Source of the DNA: Cyanidioschyzon merolae
Lineage: Eukaryota
Assembly (NCBI GenBank): GCA_000091205.1
Contig: AP006502.2
DNA length: 64,000 nucleotides
Reading direction: 5' to 3' (one strand)
Positions within the stretch are counted from its first letter, which is position 1. Every line of letters starts with the position of its first letter. This document shows, in pieces, positions 9,511 through 63,502 of this stretch. Under the pieces are notes generated by a model. That model was not told the DNA's origin. It did no database searches and worked only from the letters and a program-made list of their open reading frames with translations. Both the position numbers and the translations under genes were made by a program.

Positions 9511-12500
9511 TTGATCGTGCTTTTGATAGATGGAATAAAGCAGAGCTGGTCAAGAAACCAGCCAGCCTTACGAAGTGAGCACCAGGCGCCAATATTCGTT
9601 GAAGCCACTCCCGGTACCCGTTGCGGCAAAAATGGGACGCTGCCGTTACGCTCCGCTGCGATGTTCTCTCCGATGACAAAACGTTTCCATTGACCGTCGG
9701 TTGCAGACTCCGAGATCGGTACTGGCTTGTGGGAAAGTGTCCACTATGACGCACTCCACCTCCAGGTTCCATTAAGTGTACTTCCTTTCGCATGGACTCG
9801 TTGTATTATACCTTCTATGGTCGGCCGAGCGCATGCCTTGCCGCATCCGCATTAGCGCCTAGACCGTTGGGGCGGATGCATCCCGGAGACAGCACGGCTT
9901 TGCCGTACCACTGAGGGCGTCAAGTCCAGGTGCGCTGGACTCGACACGGGATCAGAGTACGTAAGCTTTCTAGGAGTCAGCCGTATATGCTCTGGAAGAC
10001 TCAGTTCCGGAGAATGAGGTCAGGCAAGGAGACTAGAAACACTGACGTCAGGTTTCCACTATCCTTTTGGTAGAACGTCCACGAATTCGAGGTCGAGAGC
10101 AAAACGAGGCGATCCGACGATCTGACGCATTTCTTGTTCTGGTTGCGACATCGCTCCGAACGAGAATCCACAACGAGCGCTTCCACGGGCAGCTCTTCGT
10201 TCACCTGAATCGTTACGCCAAGAAGCTCTTCCATCAGTGCCTGCTTTTCTGGTCCACTTAGGTTACAGAAGAACTGGCTAAACGGGTACGACGACGGGTA
10301 CGAGTGTGCCTCATGTAGCGTTCGGCACATGGAACCGCGTACGGTTTTAGTTTCTGCGGTTTGCCTTATATATATGGCGTCTGCATAAGGTATGTACCGA
10401 CCGCAGGGGTGGCGTACCAGCGCTTCAAGATAATATGGCGAGCGTCTCGGCAAATCCCTGATCCTTCAGTCAGGCCAGATTGTATTTCCTGTCCCGAGTA
10501 TCAGTTTTGTTATCGCATGAATATTTGTGCACAAAATCTCTAGAGGAATGCGGACCGGTTGCAGCCTTGCATCCGGAACCCCTGAACGACAAATTGCTCG
10601 TCGAGGTGCTTGTAACTGAGCAAAGCTGGCGAGCCTTCGTCCTGCAAAATGCTACAAAATTTTTCACGGCGCCCTGTATCTCTCAATATTACGGATGCGA
10701 AGAGCTGATCTATGGATTCGGAAGCACAGAAATGGCGTTTGGCAACAGAGAGGGCGCATTCCACTCGGGTGAACACGGAAGAGAATGCTTGCATGAGAGG
10801 CGGCTCACCGCGAATTACAGCTTCGTCGTCCTTGAGTCCTGGCGCTTGGTGGAAAGTGACGTTTCCTGTCAACGGGAAAGAGGCATATGGGATGGAGAAG
10901 CCAAGACGTGCTTCGACGAAGGAAGAGCTATTGGACGATCCCGTCCGTTTGGTGTGAGTTGTCGGCGACCCTACGATTGAATCGTCGATAACGCCGATGC
11001 TGTTGTAATTCCTGTTTGTCTGCGGTATGCGAAAAGCGGTTCGCTTCTCGCTGAGTACCCGTGTGCAGGTCTACACTATCTCCGGAATGAGGGCTGATCC
11101 AGTGAGAGGAGCGCCATTGTTTCTTTGCATAAACGTTTGCGTCTCAAGACGTAATCGATTCTGTGATGCAAAACGCGCGACCGTCGCCTATAGAGGCGCC
11201 CTATTTTACTTGGCCCATTCGAGTCCCTTGTTCAGCGTTCGTTTCAACGGTACGAGCACGGCATATTGTGAGGCCTCCATGGTGGTGTTTCGTAGAAAAC
11301 GTGCGCAGCAGTAGACACAGACGAGGAGGCAGCTGCTACGCCAGGGCAAGATACGTTCTCTTTGGGGTGCATAACGTTCAGGATACATGCTGCGAAATGT
11401 GTGACTCATCCGCCCGGTGACGGTAGAATTACTGACTCGTGTACGCACGGTCGTTTGCAGAGGTCATCAGCGACACACCCTGGCCTTCGTGAGACCCTTT
11501 TCAAATCCATACAATAGATTCTTTTTCTTGAATACCTGCGAACCAACGAACAGAAACTAAAAGCGCGTGCAGGGACAGGCGCTCCAAAATGCATCACACT
11601 CTCAAGATAACGGTACTCCGTTGACACTCTCTAACGCTGATCTCTGGTGCTGCGTTCACTCAATAGCGCTCTTCTCCTGTAATGCACTGGAGCGGCGCTG
11701 TAAAGTCTGGAACTGGGCAACGAGCCCTGTTGAATGTCTAGGACGTCTGGCCGTACAAACAGCATATCGCAATCTGGGTATCCTGGTCTGCATCCAACGA
11801 CGAGTCGCAGAGGCGTGTTCATCGCGCCCTATACGATTCGTTGCAGACTGCGGTTCCGATGTGATTTCGGAAGCTACGCAGAACAAGCTTTTCTGGAAAG
11901 AAATTTCCCGACCTCATGTCACGGTTCATATACGTGCGTTCGCAAACATCTTGCAGTCCTCAGAAGAGATAGAAGACCATTATGCACGACCCGCGCTTGC
12001 GCAGGAGCGCGTCCTCGCCACTTGGTCCGGCACCGGCACTCAGACAGGCAGGTTATCGGAGAGCAGCTCCCGTTTGCTACGATTCTAGTCTAACGGTACT
12101 TGTCGAGCTTTGGTCAACAGACGAAACACCGCTTTTCGATTATGCACCGCTCCAGAGCTCATGTATAGCGTGATGGAACCCCGCATCGGGCACGTACGCA
12201 CGTTTCACCGCTCGTCGTAGACAGCAGTGCCTCCCGCAACGTCACTCCGGGACGCTGCGCTCCTCGATCAGAACTTCGAGCTGATCACCATAACCGCCCC
12301 GGTCTCGCGCAAGCCTCACTCTTCTCGCATATTTCAAGTTCCATGAGTAAAGACATCTACTGGATTTTCGCCTCTCGACAACGACTACTTGCACAGCGGA
12401 AAAGCCAGGCGCTCACGAAAGCGCCTCACCAGCAGCTCACGGGACGTCGTGGTAGCCGACGGCATACCGCCCAGAGGCGCTGGACGAGTCGCGCGGCAGG

Positions 12501-15182: not shown

Positions 15183-16607
15183 CGCGAGTTGCTGCACCCA
15201 CGAGTTGTCGTGAAACAGACAATATCGAAAAAGAGACGCATGCGTGATAAGCGCGTCCAACATGTCAGGAGCGGAGTATCACGCAGGCTTGTGCATATGA
15301 ACCTGATCATGGTATCGGTTGATTTTGGGAATCACTGATCGGAACGCGTCGCACACCATCGCGAGTCTCCGGGTACGTAACGAACGCCAGCGGCACAGCG
15401 TCAACGGGGGCACTTCGAAAAAGCAACCGGGCATCCTATCACGTACTATACATGCTTGGCCGTTTATTCCGGCAATCTGATTGTCGAGGCTGTACATCGA
15501 ATGCATCTAGGAAAAATTCGCAAGACAGACGCTGAGCGAGCAATACAATATCCGATTTTAAGCTGATACAGGTGTTTTCTCTGAACGCCCCACACGTTGC
15601 GGCCGGCGACAGTCTCGCGCTTGTCGCTCTGAGGACTCGCGATGCACGAGCTCGCAGGAACGTGCACCAGTGAGGTTAGTGAGCAAGAAACAACCTCCTG
15701 TGATCCTTTCATAAGAGGACAAATGCAGACCTTGACAGGGCGGCCCAGATACATTCGGGACTCTTCAGATCATGGACGTGGCCTTTGTGCCAATGACGCG
15801 CCCGACGGCCGCTCCAGTTCATGCAGAATCGAGGAAGGTGGACCCCCACAGAGATGCCATCAGTGACACACAAAAGTTATCCCACGAACATGGAGAGTAA
15901 ACACGTAGTCTCACTCACAGACCTCTCCCAGCATTTTTTGACAGGCCGTCTGCTATCGGCTGTAGCTTCTCTTTGTACACTTCGAGGCTGAGAGGCTACT
16001 TCACAAAGGTGGTTCGCGTCAGCACCACGTATCGTATGGAATTGATGGCGGCTACGAAGTCTCGGTTCACGAACTTCTTGTATTTATTGTATCTGCTTGA
16101 ACTCACCAATGCAAGGATTGCTAGAACACGTGCCCTCCGTACCACACCAGTCTCGTCATCATCCCGTGGGGCAAACACCTCTTCCCGCCTATCCCGCCTC
16201 TTCTTCTTCTTCCTCCTCGCTCTATCAAAGACCAGAAGAGGATTTTGCTCTTTCGTTTCTCTCCGGCACCCGATGACACCGGGAACTCCAGGATTCCCAA
16301 GTTACATCTCCATAACTTTCTCTTAGATTATGTATTTCTTCAAACGGACGCATTTCGAAAGCATCTTCCATACACCGCGAAATCGCATGATGAGACACGC
16401 ACCTGGTGATGGAACACCATTGGGATGAAATACTACAATCAGACTAATATGGACAATTTATGAAAGCATTTTGCCGCAGTCGCCGCCGGCACGTCCCACG
16501 CGAATCCCCGGGTTGACCTCGGGGGTCCATGGCAACAGCCTCCAAACGACAGCGAGCTTGCATGTCTCTTTTTCCGTAAGTTTCACACCAACCGCAGGCC
16601 GCTGATC

Positions 16608-55549: not shown

Positions 55550-57112
55550 TCAACCTTGAGTGCTTTGCTTTTTTGCCCTCACTTGGGCGGAAAAATCTGT
55601 ATGAGTTTCGCAACCGGCCAACGCGTCCTCCGACTTGCTTGTGTTGAAAGAGAAACGCTGCCCCCTGGAACCGTTTCTCGGCGAACGCGTAGGCCGTGCC
55701 CCAGACGAGACAGTTTCGGGATCCAGGGAAGGGGTTCGGAAGCTTCTAGCGTCGAAGTTTCCAGAATCACAGCGGTTTTCGCACAAACGCGGCTCACTTT
55801 GGGGCGGCAACCAACTCTGGCGGCGGCAGCACTTGCTGCAGCCAACAGCGAGAAAAGCCTCGACCAGCCCCGCGAGACAATCCACGACATAGTGGTGTCG
55901 AAGGAAAACCGCCGCCCAGGAGACCGATACCACGTAGGCCCATGAAACAGAGACAAGTGCGAAGAAAACCCGTCTTCTATGGCCACCTGCTGCTTGATTC
56001 CCGGAAACAAACGACTGCCCCTTGAAGGCGCTTGCCATCAGCGCGTACTTGCGGCAGGGCGTCATGGAAGTTATGAAGCGTCTCTGAGAATGCTGCCGTA
56101 TTGCATATTCAGTACATTTGATCGCCATCCAGGTGGCCGTGGCAACATGCAGCGATGGGAACGCCGCGAACACCCATAGGTTCCGTTTGAAAAGGGTAGA
56201 ATACAGAGGAAGCCCCAGCCACTCGTCGATCGCTTCGAGTCGCGCTGCCGAACCTGTTTGCCTCCGAGAATACCATCTGCGGGACTTTGCGTTTGTGGAT
56301 GCAGCACACTGTTGTGATGTTGGCCAGAATGCACCCGTTTCCTGGAGAACAAACCAGGGCGGGGCCGTTGGCCATACAATGTGCAGGATAATGGCTATAA
56401 AGTTCAGCCAACCGTACGAAGATAGCAAGTCAAGAGTAACGGTCCAGGTCGTGGGATCCAGCGATGTCGCCGACATCCTGGGATTCTTTGATGTGCCAGC
56501 AACAAGATACAGCAACAAGAGGAACGTGGCAGCTGGCACAAACGCATGCAGACTGTAGATGAAAGCAGCAAGCAACTCCGCTGTGTAAATATGACCCTGC
56601 GATTCCGTAGAATCATTCAGACGCGAACCGCAAAGCCAAAGCTGCATCGACATTGCACTACTCTGGTTTGGTGCCAGCAACCGAGTCTGATCGATCGTAG
56701 CGAACGGACGACGGTCTCGCGAAGTCTGCTCGATGAAAGCCCAGCTCATTTCATTTCCAGAGTCGCCCGTGTTCTGCAGTGCATGCATTCGATTCAGTTG
56801 CAAGGCACGTGTTCCTAAGGCGCTTGACAGTGACAGCATACGGATCAAAGCCCGATCCAACTTGGGGAGAAAACACAGATGTTGGACTGGCGGCCTACGC
56901 TGGGCAGGCACCACCACCCCGTAAAAGTTATAGATTAGCCACCATAATGTAAAGGGCAGAACTGCCCACAACAGATTTTTCCTTCTTGCACGAGAGTTTG
57001 AGCGTTTTTTTGATTGACTGGTAAAGCAAGCACGAGTGTCTGGCACCCGAGTCCGACGTATGTGATCCTCTTGCTCGGGCCGTGAAGTCTCCTCGCTCTC
57101 CAAACCTGCCAT
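55550..57112 (-). CDS. PAP2-family sphingolipid synthase-like membrane protein (inositol-phosphorylceramide synthase AUR1 / SMS-like)
   Basis: Multi-pass membrane protein. The PAP2 catalytic motifs are 'FAAFPSLHVATATWMA' (C2-like, SxH) and 'FLRHHYVVDCLAGL' (C3-like, H-x3-D). The HYxxD...G arrangement is typical of the IPC-synthase / sphingomyelin-synthase clade. Confidence 0.65.
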   Translation of the reverse strand: MAGLESEETSRPEQEDHIRRTRVPDTRACFTSQSKKRSNSRARRKNLLWAVLPFTLWWLIYNFYGVVVPAQRRPPVQHLCFLPKLDRALIRMLSLSSALGTRALQLNRMHALQNTGDSGNEMSWAFIEQTSRDRRPFATIDQTRLLAPNQSSAMSMQLWLCGSRLNDSTESQGHIYTAELLAAFIYSLHAFVPAATFLLLLYLVAGTSKNPRMSATSLDPTTWTVTLDLLSSYGWLNFIAIILHIVWPTAPPWFVLQETGAFWPTSQQCAASTNAKSRRWYSRRQTGSAARLEAIDEWLGLPLYSTLFKRNLWVFAAFPSLHVATATWMAIKCTEYAIRQHSQRRFITSMTPCRKYALMASAFKGQSFVSGNQAAGGHRRRVFFALVSVSWAYVVSVSWAAVFLRHHYVVDCLAGLVEAFLAVGCSKCCRRQSWLPPQSEPRLCENRCDSGNFDARSFRTPSLDPETVSSGARPTRSPRNGSRGQRFSFNTSKSEDALAGCETHTDFSAQVRAKKQSTQG

Positions 57113-58313
57113 GATTAGGGAAACAATCCAGCGAGTGATGCACTAAGCCAAATACCGCAACGTGCGTGTAGTTTCCCAGGCAAAGACTCTGAGTTTGACA
57201 CAGTGTCCGACTTTTCAAATGCGCTCCTTGCTCGTGAAACACAGCCCAAGGCGCTCACAGACAAGCTTCCAAGTGGTCTCCCAACAGCGTACTCGTCTGT
57301 GTACAGCGTACAATCAACAACGTTTTGAAACAGGGACACATAACGTCGAACTGGAGCAGTGCCGTTCCCGCCTTGTGCTGCACGCATGCATGACGCGTGG
57401 ACACGGATCAGTCCGATACGTGCATTGTGCTGTCGATCGATTTTTTTCGATGAAAAGAACGTTCCATGGACCACGGGATACCAGCGTGCGTAATGGATAT
57501 TGAAATAAACGGAAGCGCTCAATGTTCTTCACTCTACCTCCAAGTTGCATCACTTTTACTTCCTTTCGGATGCGATGGCCGTTTTGTACGTTGTATCGTG
57601 CGCCGAGTGCCTGCCTTGCTGCATGCGTGATAGCAGTTATGCCGCCGGTGCAGATGCAGCACGGGCACAGAACGGCTTTGCCAGATCACTGAGGGCATCG
57701 GATCGCGGGACGCTTCACCTGATACGAAGTCGGAATACGTAATCATTCTGGGGGCTTGAAAACTGGGCAGGCAGATGTTCTTTATGCGGCAGCGGGAAGC
57801 GATGTACTAGGATTCCAACCCGACCAAGGCGATGCCCAGACACAGGATACCCGCTCCTAATCCCAGAATAAACTGTGACGAGGCGGTGAAGGACCTCACG
57901 AATCTGAAGAACCATTTGACAATGAACCTCGAACGTTTCATGATACGCGCCGTGTTTGTGCTGTATCCGGGTGTCTCTTGCAAAGGAATATGGGCGATTA
58001 TCAATGGCATCATGAACGATCGATAGTATAAAGATGAGATCGAATTCGTCGACAAGACGACATCACGCAGGAGCACAAATGAAGCTTCCGTAATCTGTGC
58101 GGTTATACAGGAGCACTGCGCAGTCTTGGGGCTGGCGAATCGAGCAGGAAGGATATCAGAGTTGAAAAAGATAAGGAAAGACACTATCGCCTCGTCCTGC
58201 GCAATTTTGTGTTTCTGGACCGAGAACTCGAATGCAAGGCGGAGATGAAGCCTAATGAGGAAAACATGAAGAGTGGGAGAGACGGAAGGCGTCCCTAATG
58301 GGTAAGCGCTTCA

Positions 58314-59597
58314 ATGGCGTTCTGTTGTGCAACATCAAGTCACATTTTTGTGACTATCGACTCCAGAATCCTACATGGCATCATGAGGGAGAACAGTCCG
58401 GAGTTCGATGTTAGCAGGGAGAACTTCACCGGTGAAAACCGGGAGACGTACTGGAAGAATATCTTCGATTTCAGATGTCTCAAAACAAGCAAGAAAAAGA
58501 ACTTCACTGAGATGATCGAAACCGATGGAGTAGCCATGTGTGTACACCATCGGCGCTTGAAGGCAGATCGTCCAGTTCCGCTCTCGACTTCGCCCTCGGC
58601 GAAGCATGAACATGAGTAGAGGACGGATCCTGCCACTCAGAAAGTGCAGGATCACGACCTTGTCGTTGGCGCAGCGGAGCATGAAGATGAGAAGGAGGCG
58701 GGTCTTGAGAAGCAGAAAGTGCAGGATGACGACTTTGTCGTTGGCGCAGACCCCCGAAACACAAATATCATAACGATCGCTGTACCTAAGCGTGCGGAAG
58801 ATGGCATTGACGGCAACTTATGTCAGAAAGACATACGTCTTTTGAGGTTCTCTAGAGCAAGATACTATCGAGAATCGGGAACCATGAATGCAAGGAAGAA
58901 AATCGACACATGGAATGGAGGAATGAAGGGTCACCTGGGAGCTTTGAGCGAAGTGACGAGCCGAGGAGCGGACTTTCGAGCTTTTCGGAAATTCATGGAG
59001 GTTCGCGTTGCTCATTGGGAGGTGCTGTGGAAAGAGTATACAAAGCCCCGGTCGGCTCGTTTGCGAATGAATCTATACAGTGGGAAGCAGCGGGCGTTTG
59101 CCAACTTTTTCAATCAGTTGAGTGCCTTGAAGGAGGACGAGAGTCAAAGGCTCGTAGTAGCGTATGGGACAGCGCACTGGGCGCCCAAGAAAGGCACTAA
59201 GCCAGCTCCAACGACAAGAACTTACGAGGAGTGCGCAAGGCGTTTTGTTACGATACCTATAGATGAGTTTCGAACATTGTATACACACCATGAGCTGGGG
59301 TGTATACTTCAAAGGGTCGAGATGGAAAAGAGCCAGTAGAGCCCTGAAGTTATAAAAAAGTACGGAGCACTGACGGAAGACCAAATGGAAAGGAGGGCGA
59401 GAGTTCGAGGATTGCTTGCACTAGTGAGTACAACTACCAGTGGCAAGAAACGCATGGAGTTTGTGAACCGCGAATTCAATGCCGCAATCAATATAAGGAA
59501 ATGTGCGGTGCTGGAGAAGAGACCTCCAGAGTTGGCGAGAGAGAATTTTGTTGGACAATCTCTCAAAGTCGAACTATATGAGAAAAAGTTGGAATAA
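58314..59597 (+). pseudogene. TnpB/Fanzor-like (OMEGA-family RuvC) nuclease gene remnant; one reading frame with two in-frame TAG codons
   Basis: One frame contains three ORF pieces: 58314-58619, 58644-59339 and 59385-59597. RuvC-I-like '[18 protein letters not shown]' lies at ~58734-58790. 'FVTIPIDEFRTLYTHHELGC' at ~59240-59305 resembles the TnpB 'V.VDP.YTSQ.CS.CG' block with cysteines lost. RuvC-III-like 'KRMEFVNREFNAAINI' at 59451-59495 matches 'R.F.C..CG...RD.NAA.NI' but with C to M/V and D to E changes. The in-frame TAGs are at 58617-58619 and 59337-59339. Confidence 0.6.
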
Positions 59598-59994
59598 GTG
59601 GTGTGTGGCCGGTCCAAACAGGTTGCGAGGCGTCTGCACAACTGTCGGAGACGTTCTGTCTAGGGCGGGCTCCTCGCCACTACTGTACACCGCTGGCGGA
59701 AACGTTTTTCTTTTGAAAAGCGTTCGTTGTTGGCTTTGGTGAGCTCAAGCTTTGACTATCATTTGTTGAATAACCAAATTAAAACCAGTGAGTGGATCGT
59801 GTGCTCCAGTGGAAAACACCGTGCTCCACTGTTGGTTGCTTACGCGCCTCACTCTGAGGAGGCCGTGCATTTCAGGAGCGATCCGTCCCCTGCTGCTACA
59901 GAGCGCATAACGCCGTGACCTCCCGACGAGGCACTGACAAGGTTAGTGTACAAGTTCCAGGATCCGAGCAGCACCAGACGGCAACGCGCTACAA

Positions 59995-62253
59995 ATGCCA
60001 AAGCAAAAGCTTAAGCTGCCGCGTGGGCCGCAAGGCCGGCTTCCATCATCCTCTACTGATCCAAACCGAGGTAACCGCATACCTGGAGGTGGCGGTTGGG
60101 GTCGAAGTCGCGCTACCGTTAAACGAATACGGATGTATGCTCGTCCCGCTTATGAGCGAGACCGCAACGGACGCATCCAGCATGATCGTGGCGACCTGAC
60201 GAGTTCGGTCGTGAAAGAACCCGGTGCGGGTCGAATCGCTCCAAATCGTCGTTGGTTTGGAAATACTCGTACAATTGACCAGGAGAGTCTCCAGACTTTT
60301 CGAGAGAGCATTTCAGGTGCAGAGCGCGATCCATACACGATAGTTCTGAGACAACGGCATCTACCGTGGACGCTCATCAAGGAAGGCATGGAAGCGAGAG
60401 ACGTTGAACGTTTTGAACATGCCGCAGGCAGGGCAAACCTGCGGTCGCATGCATTGGCGGAAGGCTCGGAAATGACAAGGGGAGTACGGTTCAAGTCCTC
60501 TCAGGCGCTGCTTCGTTTGGAGCCTTTCGCTGAAACATTTCACCAACGTCGCTGGAGAAAGCGACCGCGAATCGCCTTCGATAGTATAGAAGAACTGGCG
60601 GAAAGCGTTCGAGATACTGCCACAACTGCAGCCGCGGCCGCCGGTGCTGCTCAAGCCACCACTGCGGAGCCTGGCGCTGGCAGCGAAGAGCCGAGACCCG
60701 AGGCAGGCCCAGATACATTGCGATCACGCAGTCTGCCTCCAGTACCAGGAGCCGAACGGTCTACAGCAGGTTCATTGAAACAGCTTGCCTCGGAGCAGGT
60801 TCCTGAGCGCAGCATCGATGCACTGGGCAAGACGGCGTACACGAAAGGCCAAAGCCACCGCATCTGGTCGGAGTTGTACAAAGTCATAGATGCTTCCGAC
60901 GTGGTGCTGTTCGTGCTCGATGCTCGGGATCCACTCGGCACCCGTATACCGCTCATTGAAAATATGCTCCGCAAAGAGCATGCTCACAAACACTTGGCTT
61001 TCGTTCTGAACAAGTGCGACCTGGTGCCAAAACATGTCACTGCTGTCTGGTTACGTCTCCTGAGCCGTGAGTATCCCACCGTTGTTTTTCGTGCAAATGA
61101 CTGCAAACGCGCATTCGGGCGTGGAGCGCTCCTACAGCTACTCCGGCAGTTCGCGCGCCTGCATCGCAAAGATCGCCAGTCCATCACCTGCGGTCTCGTG
61201 GGCTACCCTAACGTTGGCAAATCGTCCATCATCAATGCTTTGCGGAAGGAGAAGGTGGTGCGAGCCGCCCCTATTCCCGGAGAGACCAAAGTCTGGCAAT
61301 ATGTAACCCTTTTCCGTCGTGTGTACCTCGTTGACTGCCCAGGGGTGGTGCACGCGCGCCTCGCTGGACACATGGACGTCTCTGACATGGTGCTTCGCGG
61401 TGTTGTTCGGATTGAGAGCCTCCGCGATGATGCGGAGCGGCATATACCGCGTCTGCTTGAACGAGTCAACCGACATCATCTCGAAGCTGTTTACCGAGTG
61501 AGCCTGGATGGATGCGACGCCGACGGTTTTCTCGACGCTATCGCCCGGGCTCGCGGCAAACTTCTTCCTGGCGGTGAGCCCGATCGCAACGCTGCAGCCA
61601 AACTGCTCATTCATGATTTCATTCTGGGTCGACTGCAATGGTACGTCGCACCGCCGGCGATGCCCTCCTCAGTGGCGAAGGCAAACGCAGTGCTCTCTCT
61701 GGACGGCAGCGCTCGCGCCTCTGTCATTGGTACGAACGCGGTTGAGGTGTCGTCCGCTGGCGACGATCGGAACTCGCAAATGCAACGCCATACAGGGAGC
61801 AATGCTGGCGTCTCGAGTCCCGGATCAGAAGCGCTTGACATGGACGAAAGACGAGCCCACTCTGGATCAGCGGCCACCCGCCCGCTGGTAGATGGAGCTG
61901 ATCTGCTCCTGCACGATCTACTAGCCGAACAGAGTTTCGATGAAGATGATGAGGCTCCTGAGGCGCTGTCTGTGTTTACGACAACGAATACTAGCCGAGA
62001 TACCAGCGCTGGAACGCAGTTCACACCGGATGCAGCGGATAGTACTGCGGGGACATCGTCACCAGTCCGAGTCTCTGAAACTGCCGAGCGGTCCATCCGA
62101 AAAGCCCGGAAAAAGTCAACATCAACGCGATCGAAGCGGCGTGCAGGTCGTCTTTCCAAGCGGTTGCGTCGGCTGGCAGAGTGGAATACGGAGCCCGTGC
62201 TGCAGGCAAATCTCCAACGGACATTGCAGAAAACCGAGCCCAGGGTCCATTAA
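59995..62253 (+). CDS. NOG2: nucleolar GTP-binding protein 2 (NOG2/GNL2, circularly permuted YlqF/YawG GTPase)
   Basis: The N-terminal NGP1 motif is 'NRIPGGGGWGRSRATVKRIRMY'. The GTPase motif order is permuted: G4 'VLNKCDLVP' precedes G1 'GYPNVGKSSIINAL' and G3 'YLVDCPGVV'. It has a basic C-terminal tail. Confidence 0.9.
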   Translation: MPKQKLKLPRGPQGRLPSSSTDPNRGNRIPGGGGWGRSRATVKRIRMYARPAYERDRNGRIQHDRGDLTSSVVKEPGAGRIAPNRRWFGNTRTIDQESLQTFRESISGAERDPYTIVLRQRHLPWTLIKEGMEARDVERFEHAAGRANLRSHALAEGSEMTRGVRFKSSQALLRLEPFAETFHQRRWRKRPRIAFDSIEELAESVRDTATTAAAAAGAAQATTAEPGAGSEEPRPEAGPDTLRSRSLPPVPGAERSTAGSLKQLASEQVPERSIDALGKTAYTKGQSHRIWSELYKVIDASDVVLFVLDARDPLGTRIPLIENMLRKEHAHKHLAFVLNKCDLVPKHVTAVWLRLLSREYPTVVFRANDCKRAFGRGALLQLLRQFARLHRKDRQSITCGLVGYPNVGKSSIINALRKEKVVRAAPIPGETKVWQYVTLFRRVYLVDCPGVVHARLAGHMDVSDMVLRGVVRIESLRDDAERHIPRLLERVNRHHLEAVYRVSLDGCDADGFLDAIARARGKLLPGGEPDRNAAAKLLIHDFILGRLQWYVAPPAMPSSVAKANAVLSLDGSARASVIGTNAVEVSSAGDDRNSQMQRHTGSNAGVSSPGSEALDMDERRAHSGSAATRPLVDGADLLLHDLLAEQSFDEDDEAPEALSVFTTTNTSRDTSAGTQFTPDAADSTAGTSSPVRVSETAERSIRKARKKSTSTRSKRRAGRLSKRLRRLAEWNTEPVLQANLQRTLQKTEPRVH

Positions 62254-63502
62254 ACGAGTACAGAGTGAGAGCAGTACCATTTAAGAGATTGTAGAACCTT
62301 AATTTCAGTGGGCCTGAGTTACGGAACACCATAATCGTTTATCGCTAGCAACTGCTGGGGGGCTCGTTTCTGGTGTATATATATCTATGGCGCACCAGCT
62401 TTGCTGGAATGCCGAACCGTACCAAACCATACCATACAAGTGCGTTGCTCCAAGCGAGAATCCAATACCCTTTCCCTTGGCCTCTGAAAGAGTTCAGTCC
62501 AAGCCCATAGCTTTTCCGCAGGATGCGCATACTGAGCATCACACGATTCCCTCGAAAAGTTCGGTCGAAACAACGCTGTCAGACGCTCGGGCAGCACGAG
62601 GCATTTCCGCATTGTGACCGCGATGTTGTCGTTTCTGTGCATATATATCGCTTTGGCTCATGGTTGCTCGTGGAATTACACGATACCAAGCATCTCAGTT
62701 GTGTTTTCCTCGTCATCCAACGTTCGCCCAGAGCTTACCTTACACCATCTCGTGTGTGCGTCTCCGTTTTGCGTCCCTTGCCTCTACTCGTTTCATCTTG
62801 AACTCGTGCTCGTAATACGCGCGTGCTAGCCTGGAAGAATCGATGGGAATCATACAGAATAGATTCCCGCACTTATCATACACTTCCGTGGAAGGAGCAG
62901 AAGTGCTGGCCTTGCGCGTCACAGCACGCTCTGCGAAGCGCGCTACCTCCAAACGAAGCGACTTGTCGATCGTTTCCTTTCCCAAATTGCTGAACGAGAT
63001 GAAGAATGCATGTTTCTTGTTGCGATTCATCGGAAACCGTTGAATACGCTTGCACGGTCCCATATACTCCTGTAAAATGTCGTCTGCAAGCACCAGGTGG
63101 ACGCTCAGTTCTCTTCTGCATGAATTGCCAAAAGTTTTCTTGTGTTCGATAAGGGTCTCAGTGCCTCAATGCGGGTCTTGAAGCAGTTATTCCACGAGTT
63201 AGTATGCCTGCCGACGTCCATCATGCCCGCTCTTCTATAATACTGGGCCCCGGAGAAGTTCAGCAGTTTCACCAGATTATCGCTCTAGTCTTTTGCTCGG
63301 TCCAATTGATTTTGGGGTACGGCGACGGCTACAAAGACTTTTAGCGGAAGTTCAGGCCCACGAATAAGACTTCCTCTATATCTACCCTGAACTACTGAAA
63401 AAGAATCTCGTAGCTCGATTCATGCGAAGTATTTGAAAAGTGCATGCAGATTCATGTTCCGTAGGCCTCCATGCTCGATGTAAACCTCTTTCCATTTCCT
63501 TG

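Follow-up and report, generated by a model that had tools for sequence, protein, structure and literature searches.

Introduction

Bao and Jurka (2013, Mobile DNA 4:12, PMC3627910) described one Fanzor1 family in Cyanidioschyzon merolae, named CMe-1A, with about 150 copies of about 3 kb that are each about 80% identical to the consensus. No terminal inverted repeats (TIRs) or target-site duplications (TSDs) were found for CMe-1A, and its 5' 635 bp are common to the repeat TE-N2_CMe. Some copies stay intact, and the coding capacity of the family was remarked to be unusually long-lasting. The same study gave a CCCC zinc finger between RuvC-II and RuvC-III as a Fanzor1 motif, and Saito et al. (2023, Extended Data Fig. 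10) report that SpuFz1 and TnpB share this conserved finger.

Here we analyze a 64,000-nucleotide stretch of C. merolae DNA (contig AP006502.2; hereafter the window) in which a Fanzor-like frame at 58314-59597 is interrupted by two in-frame TAG codons. An original prediction, made from the letters alone, took the frame for a decaying element inactivated by these nonsense mutations and offered introns or domestication as alternatives. We conclude, with a probability of about 0.93, that the region is a dead, internally deleted CMe-1A copy between CMT128C and a Nug1-family GTPase gene. The predicted decay is strongly supported by additional lesions, strain polymorphism and a neutral rate of change, and the decaying element belongs to a family already known since 2013 (PMC3627910). 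An unannotated stretch of C. merolae is thereby explained as the relic of a transposon family described in that year, which has little significance for the locus itself.

The interrupted frame derives from a Fanzor1 gene

Three open reading frame (ORF) pieces at 58314-58619, 58644-59339 and 59385-59597 share one frame, their codon starts being divisible by 3. From 58314 to 59597 this frame is open save for TAG at 58617-58619 and TAG at 59337-59339, both present as predicted and common to all six strains compared below, and it contains the strings 'VVGADPRN', 'IDEFRT', 'HHELGCILQ' and 'KKRMEFVNREFNAAINI'. Random codons of the same composition are expected to hold about 24 stops per 428, and the probability of two or fewer is 6e-9; the remaining five frames hold 6-23 stops each. 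With so few stops against chance, 58314-59597 is therefore a genuine former coding frame.

A protein search returned 177 relatives of 48-80% identity, all from hot-spring metagenomes, and a scan of the collection located 242 related loci, which lie in hot-spring metagenomes containing C. merolae-like strains. Eighty of the 242 loci were fetched; metagenome loci are labeled L001 and so on, and paralogue counts and the consensus are based on 56 non-redundant copies. A profile search of 1.84 billion representatives yielded 1,503 relatives, many of them 600-740 amino acids (aa) long. The profile built from 32 sequences, distant relatives included, matched Parasitella Fanzor1 (9CF0) with E=1.7e-20 and Guillardia Fanzor1 (9CER) with E=4.5e-5. 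No Pfam family matched the window translation, four paralogues or the consensus above threshold, the best being a sub-threshold Cas12f1-like_TNB match (E=0.5) at 'NRDFNAAINIR', and single-sequence phmmer against the PDB returned noise only.

A first AlphaFold model, built on a shallow 23-sequence alignment, had a predicted local distance difference test score (pLDDT) of 35, was unusable and was not taken to a fold search. Modeling of paralogue P0003, in place of the window copy, on the 32-sequence alignment gave a pLDDT of 69 overall and 80-95 in the RuvC half, with a predicted template modeling score (pTM) of 0.60. The seven best PDB matches in the fold search with this model were all SpuFz, PpFz or GtFz structures (E 3e-11 to 1.5e-6), with Cas12 and TnpB ranking next. 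The repeat family is thus Fanzor1 by sequence profile and by fold, the window frame is the remnant of a Fanzor1 gene, and the Fanzor label originally given to it was correct.

The window copy is an internally deleted CMe-1A element

Alignment of the paralogues delineated a repeat unit with constant ends (as in L002 3395-5998), preceded in many copies by an upstream 5' module. Full-length copies measure about 3.2-3.4 kb. The 5' module also occurs separately, for instance at 9733-9975 (plus strand) of the window, where a lone TE-N2_CMe-like fragment is 68-70% identical to 57530-57752. Our majority consensus contains a single uninterrupted ORF of about 800 codons that begins with 'MKKQVDDPGG' and finishes with '...WRRFV*', leaving about 60 nt to the element's 3' end. 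The window copy is 87.6% identical in DNA to this consensus over 1824 bp, and none of the 56 sampled paralogues is fully intact. The window copy and its relatives match the published description of CMe-1A. A LINE-like (long interspersed nuclear element) origin was considered for the family, in which many copies are seemingly 5'-truncated and share a constant 3' end, and was rejected: several of these copies keep the 5' module and are internal deletions, and the unit has no poly-A and no reverse transcriptase ORF.

The window copy is organized as follows.

57441-59732, plus strand: whole CMe-1A-type copy, an internally deleted derivative; DNA homology to paralogues starts at 57437-57442 and ends at 59724-59732
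57441-57875, plus strand: 5' module, 67-73% identical to segments upstream of many copies, with the conserved terminus 'TTTTTTTCGATGAAAAGAACGTTCCATGGACC'
57876-57882, plus strand: internal-deletion junction; about 940 bp of full-length copies absent (rest of the 5' region, ATG and codons 1-166)
57883-59663, plus strand: Fanzor1 ORF remnant, consensus codons ~167 to the end, from tblastn and consensus alignment
58024-58026, plus strand: nonsense TAG (family AAG, Lys), in all six strains
58165-58169, plus strand: frameshifting 1-bp deletion in an A-run (A6 to A5), found in 10D and L091 and absent from the four other strains
58263-58346, plus strand: stretch out of the ancestral frame, from a 1-bp deletion (~58263-64) to a 1-bp T insertion (T-run 58342-58346)
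58597-58747, plus strand: two units of a 75-bp (25-aa) tandem repeat, '..HEDEKEA..QKVQD.D.VVGA', the last running into the RuvC-I strand
58617-58619, plus strand: first of the two predicted TAGs (family AAG in 20 copies, AAA in 5, GAG in 5, CAG in 2), in all six strains
58749-58751, plus strand: RuvC-I Asp, GAC in 'VVGADPRN', kept
59265-59267, plus strand: RuvC-II Glu, GAG in 'IDEFRT', kept
59331-59339, plus strand: 'SQ*' for family 'CQR', a copy-specific Cys-to-Ser change and the second predicted TAG (family CGG in 36 copies, AGG in 13)
59472-59474, plus strand: RuvC-III position, GAA (Glu) for Asp; Asp in 48 of 53 covering paralogues, Gly in strain L087
59595-59597, plus strand: TAA, 22 codons premature, in 10D only; CCA in the other strains and GCA or CCA in the family; within a substitution patch at 59595-59604
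59661-59663, plus strand: natural stop TAG, from consensus alignment
59664-59732, plus strand: 3' non-coding tail with hairpin GGCGGG-CTC-CTCGCC, then ACTACTGTACAC, then terminal hairpin AACGTTTTTC-TTTT-GAAAAGCGTT

Compared with the consensus, the copy has thus lost about 940 bp and gained three frameshifts, four nonsense codons and two substitutions, Cys-to-Ser and Asp-to-Glu. The deletion is plain in the alignment with L022, where window 57441-57875 corresponds to L022 2701-3134 and window 57872 onward to L022 4074 onward. The segment 57441-57875 is probably the TE-N2_CMe-like 5' part of Bao and Jurka. The three ORF pieces do lie in the same frame, as had been stated, but they are not separated by the two TAGs only: the homologous region 57883-59663 also contains TAG 58024-58026, three indels and TAA 59595-59597. 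Likewise, the first piece begins with 11 codons (58314-58346, 'MAFCCATSSHI') that do not belong to the ancestral frame, and a TAA at 58297-58299 in the frame as first read falls within the out-of-frame stretch 58263-58346. The number of 75-bp units varies among paralogues from none to several; the two diverged units of the window copy went unscored by TRF. At the codon after 'KRPPE' (window 59529-59531, TTG), the 56 copies have TAG in 13, TTG in 11, TGG in 8 and TCG in 6; this TAG may be the original stop of a subfamily, in which the last ~40 'codons' would then be non-coding 3' region.

The two TAG codons are ordinary nonsense mutations among several disabling lesions

L076/L077 hold a copy with the identical deletion junction that is only 76-82% identical to the window copy. 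Because the same junction occurs in so diverged a copy, the internal deletion probably predates insertion at the CMT128C/Nug1 locus. Besides these two, different internal deletions retaining the 5' module and the 3' end were found in L032 and in the second copy in L039. The ancestral element, about 3.2 kb long, coded for a single protein of some 800 aa that had no CCCC finger and carried the triad Asp in 'GADPG', Glu in 'DEFRT' and Asp in 'NRDFNAA'; by analogy with published Fanzor and TnpB work, the protein may have been an RNA-guided DNA endonuclease with its guide RNA drawn from the 3' end of the element. Loss of the start and the first 166 codons, probably before insertion at the locus, was followed by the three frameshifts, the four nonsense codons, the Cys-to-Ser change and the catalytic Asp-to-Glu change, and decay continues within the species at about the neutral rate.

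It follows that the nonsense codons were probably not the inactivating event, as had been proposed for the two TAGs, since the deletion took the start and 166 codons and three frameshifts were added. Their sources in the family also differ from those proposed. Both TAGs had been placed one C-to-T step from CAG or TGG. The family codons are AAG for TAG 58024, AAG for TAG 58617, CGG for TAG 59337 and GCA or CCA for TAA 59595. TAG 58617 is most simply an A-to-T transversion, and TAG 59337 needs two CpG-type transitions from CGG. The proposed single C-to-T step thus does not hold for either TAG, although CpG decay may have had a part in TAG 59337. The window copy has no intact translatable ORF: the start is missing, 166 codons are gone, and three frameshifts and four premature stops interrupt what is left. 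Given the missing start, the frameshifts, the stops and the neutral evolution described below, the window copy makes no Fanzor protein and no function is detectable for it. Within this larger set of disabling lesions, the two TAGs are nothing other than ordinary nonsense mutations.

The comparison with other copies that the original prediction called for also bears on short spliceosomal introns, which were proposed to span each TAG so that splicing would restore the ORF. The in-frame arrangement of the pieces is all that suggests them. Paralogues carry sense codons at the positions of both TAGs and do not differ in length there, with no inserted sequence for an intron to explain, and removal of any segment would delete conserved codons; splicing would also leave the start and 166 codons absent and the three frameshifts and two further stops in place. 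C. merolae has very few introns. The chance that the TAGs lie in introns is therefore practically nil.

TAG could alternatively be read through or reassigned, with the frame still translated, an idea to which the preponderance of TAG among premature stops in all paralogues (114 TAG, 61 TGA, 42 TAA) lends some color. Nine long ORFs in the window are exact matches to annotated C. merolae 10D proteins (CMT locus tags; a 1,621,617-bp record), and TAG is the terminator of two of these nine verified genes, in agreement with the expectation that genes in the window end normally, TAG included. Moreover, TGA and TAA interrupt the paralogues as well; the premature stops are scattered and derive mostly from codons that a single change turns into a stop (TAC, AAG, TTG, TGG, GAG), and the frameshifts would persist in any case. 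Recoding of TAG consequently deserves hardly any credence.

The relic is shared by six strains and evolves without constraint

We recovered the orthologous locus in five metagenome assemblies, whose strains are about 99% identical to 10D and bring the total to six. All five metagenome strains carry TAG 58024, TAG 58617, TAG 59337 and the frameshift pair, whereas the 58165 frameshift (10D and L091 only) and TAA 59595 (10D only) are polymorphic, and at RuvC-III five strains have Glu and one has Gly. Errors of sequencing or assembly in the 10D reference might be invoked for the stops and frameshifts, one frameshift lying in a homopolymer run (58165-69). The lesions common to independent assemblies exclude this, L091 sharing even the A-run deletion, and we consider such errors extraordinarily improbable.

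In the relic, 20 of 1241 nonsynonymous sites are polymorphic, compared with 17 of 2746 in the two flanking genes, a 2.6-fold excess (p=0.004); the relic rate does not differ from the synonymous-site rate of the flanking genes (p=0.47). Two patches of clustered substitutions are excluded from these counts. About 20 of the 48 positions in 58393-58440 and 6 of the 10 in 59595-59604 distinguish 10D from the other five strains, against a background of about 1%, and in the former patch the 10D allele is nearer the family consensus. Both patches look like ectopic gene conversion between dispersed CMe-1 copies. The relic is old, fixed in all six strains, unconstrained and still gaining lesions.

These data address domestication, in which the host would have kept a non-catalytic Fanzor derivative. 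Fixation of the insertion in six strains and an in-frame ratio of nonsynonymous to synonymous divergence (dN/dS) of 0.36 against the consensus could be taken in its favor. However, a retained protein would have no ancestral start and would be broken by three frameshifts and four stops, of which one frameshift and one stop, together with the RuvC-III residue, vary between strains. Nonsynonymous polymorphism equals the host synonymous rate and is 2.6 times the host nonsynonymous rate, the locus is not annotated as a gene, and the low dN/dS is common to all 56 dead paralogues and so reflects history before inactivation. The polymorphic lesions and the neutral nonsynonymous rate therefore exclude a domesticated gene for practical purposes; we rate it as highly improbable.

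A missing zinc finger is a property of the family

The original prediction counted lost zinc-finger and catalytic residues among the signs of decay. The family consensus over the 56 copies reads 'TSYTHHELGC...EKCQR...RGLLALVS...KRMEFVNRDFNAAINIR', that is, 'DEFRTSYTHHELGCTLQRVEMEKCQRSPED...VRGLLALVSTT..GKKRMEFVNRDFNAAINIRRC', and contains no CxxC...CxxC. The His, His, Cys and Cys residues of this region are each kept in 48-53 of the 55 covering copies. Among 62 distant full-length relatives with recognizable RuvC-II and RuvC-III, 57 miss both Cys pairs and keep D-E-D. The zinc-finger cysteines are thus replaced in comparison with canonical Fanzor and TnpB, but this is not a loss in the window copy, since the whole family shares it. 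With the family consensus and 57 of 62 relatives lacking the finger, its absence is no evidence of decay and, on these alignments, is a trait of the clade. Literature searches on zinc-finger-less Fanzors and on DUF8286 found nothing useful. Distant relatives P0227-P0373 make up a large clade of Fanzor1-like proteins of 600-740 aa from metagenomic eukaryotes, with 'RGLLWC.ST...FVNRD.NAAINIRRC' and D-E-D and without the CCCC finger (57 of 62 checked).

Copy-specific changes in this region are limited to Cys-to-Ser at 59331-59333, where 53 of 55 covering paralogues have Cys, and Asp-to-Glu at 59472-59474. D, E and D are invariant across the 32-sequence alignment. The window copy keeps D (58749-51) and E (59265-67) and has Glu at the third position (59472-74), where the predicted RuvC-III change is borne out by the codon GAA. 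For the Fanzor/TnpB field, the interest lies in a family, with broad relatives, that lacks a supposedly conserved zinc finger while the triad is kept, and in a divergence of about 20% between copies that bears the signature of past selection at the protein level (see below). Both points concern the family and not the window copy.

Past selection and the points that weigh against the preferred reading

The dN/dS of copies against the consensus ranged from 0.24 to 0.58 with a median of 0.37, while wrong frames gave 0.90 and 1.15; for the window copy the 0.36 given above stands against 0.73 and 1.11 in two wrong frames. The dN/dS check proposed earlier for the locus thus speaks for past selection and not for current constraint, nonsynonymous sites among the strains changing at the neutral rate. 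The past selection fits the remark in 2013 on long-lasting coding capacity (PMC3627910). If the ancestral omega (dN/dS) was 0.1-0.2, the neutral phase would, as a rough inference, account for about 5-7% divergence or about 85-120 substitutions, a number from which a handful of disabling mutations could roughly be expected.

Several observations weigh against a dead CMe-1A copy. The consensus used here is our own majority consensus and not the Repbase CMe-1A entry, and the match to the family was made by published description. The in-frame dN/dS is far below the out-of-frame values, so that selection on the protein prevailed during most of the divergence between copies, and neutral decay added only its final portion. 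The population ratio of nonsynonymous to synonymous polymorphism (pN/pS) of the relic is 0.81, which on few sites is not significantly different from that of host genes (~0.5). Finally, the pairwise dN/dS between the window copy and L076, which has the same deletion, is 0.29, a value difficult to reconcile with a window copy that ceased to code at the deletion. Three processes could explain it: gene conversion from functional copies, of which the patches at 58393-58440 and 59595-59604 may be traces, a shortened variant that once functioned, or a deletion that recurred. An in-frame ATG lies 17 codons upstream of the junction in each of the two copies (position 57832 of the window), and counts of shared derived sites did not single out L076 as the sister of the window copy.

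From the same data a bolder picture can be drawn, in which CMe-1 is part of a large clade of Fanzor1-like proteins that lost the CCCC finger, kept D-E-D and evolved under purifying selection, and the N-terminally deleted variant represented by the window copy and L076 (with a new in-frame ATG at 57832) may have remained functional for long before dying, or the dead copy may supply guide RNA in trans. If true, it would mean an RNA-guided nuclease operating without a zinc finger. We consider this proposal, taken as a whole, unlikely, and keep to a dead, internally deleted CMe-1A copy.

The 3' end and a possible non-coding role

The last 130 nt of the family contain three recurrent hairpins. The terminal hairpin comes in two versions among the 3' ends of L001-L086, CGTTCGA-CTT-TCGAACG or, as in the window, AACGTTTTTC-TTTT-GAAAGACGTT, and some copies finish in unrelated sequence. 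The 5' terminus of the element (57441, 'TTTTTTCGATGA.AAAACGTTTCC') resembles the 3' half of the hairpin version found in the window.

With its coding part dead, the copy might still have kept a non-coding role, either as a 'ghost' source of guide RNA for an intact CMe-1 protein or as part of a promoter region shared by the flanking genes. The 3' terminal hairpins are intact in the window copy and recurrent across copies, stand-alone ghost loci are mentioned by Saito et al. (2023), and some CMe-1A copies are intact according to Bao and Jurka (PMC3627910). On the other hand, RNAalifold on 41 aligned 3' ends yielded no conserved structure, Rfam gave no match for the 3' end, 3 of the 69 nt of the 3' tail vary among the strains, which shows no sign of constraint, and none of the 56 sampled paralogues is intact. 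A retained non-coding role is thus improbable.

Neighboring genes and other CMe-1 sequences

The window, which from the CMT naming scheme we take to lie on C. merolae 10D chromosome 20, has the relic between two host genes.

55550-57112, minus strand: CMT128C (BAM83138), flanking the element on the left and divergent to the GTPase gene
59995-62253, plus strand: Nug1-family GTPase gene (BAM83139), flanking the element on the right

BAM83138 and BAM83139 are consecutive accessions with zero proteins annotated between the two genes; the relic locus is therefore unannotated as a gene.

The window contains two further Fanzor1-like relics. One, far more decayed, lies at 62764-63335 (minus strand) in two frames with one stop and has 34-35% aa identity to consensus residues 436-626. 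The other, a C-terminal relic at 15897-16154 (minus strand; 'FVNRDFVAAINSIRYVVL') with two stops, has 45% aa identity to consensus residues 639-732 and retains the RuvC-III Asp. In the metagenome loci, two CMe-1 copies about 78% identical to each other are arranged head-to-head and inverted at L005/L006 1741-7432, and an RVT_1 ORF and a 474-aa ORF at L002 814-2710 (minus strand), just upstream of one CMe-1 copy, apparently belong to an unrelated retroelement.

Comparison with known systems

The closest described system is CMe-1A (PMC3627910), which likewise is a multi-copy family of the same species, with copies about 80-88% identical to the consensus, a unit of about 3 kb mostly filled by one Fanzor1 ORF, a 5' module that also occurs alone and no obvious terminal inverted repeats. 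The window copy differs in being internally deleted and multiply disrupted, the comparison being with the published description, and the paper has some intact copies where our sample of 56 has none.

Internally deleted, non-autonomous derivatives of DNA transposons offer a parallel in that both ends are kept, an internal segment is lost and several deletion derivatives exist; they differ in that no transposase, TIR or TSD has been identified for CMe-1A, here or in PMC3627910. TnpB of IS200/IS605 and IS607 (such as ISDra2 TnpB, 8H1J) and Cas12f belong to the same RuvC fold family, with weaker fold matches (E ~5e-3) and the sub-threshold Cas12f1-like TNB Pfam match at 'NRDFNAAINIR'. In contrast to these, CMe-1 resides in a eukaryotic host and has a much longer N-terminal half, no accompanying TnpA and no zinc finger.

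Among characterized proteins, SpuFz1 (8GKH), PpFz1 (9CF0) and GtFz1 (9CER) resemble the family most, in profile and fold over WED/REC and RuvC and in D...E...D in the same motif order, with 'DEFRTS' and 'NRD.NAA.N' present. Compared with these three, the window copy has Glu at RuvC-III, no intact ORF and a guide RNA that is only putative, and the CMe-1 consensus and most of the wider clade are set apart by the lack of the CCCC finger of the NUC/TNB domain.

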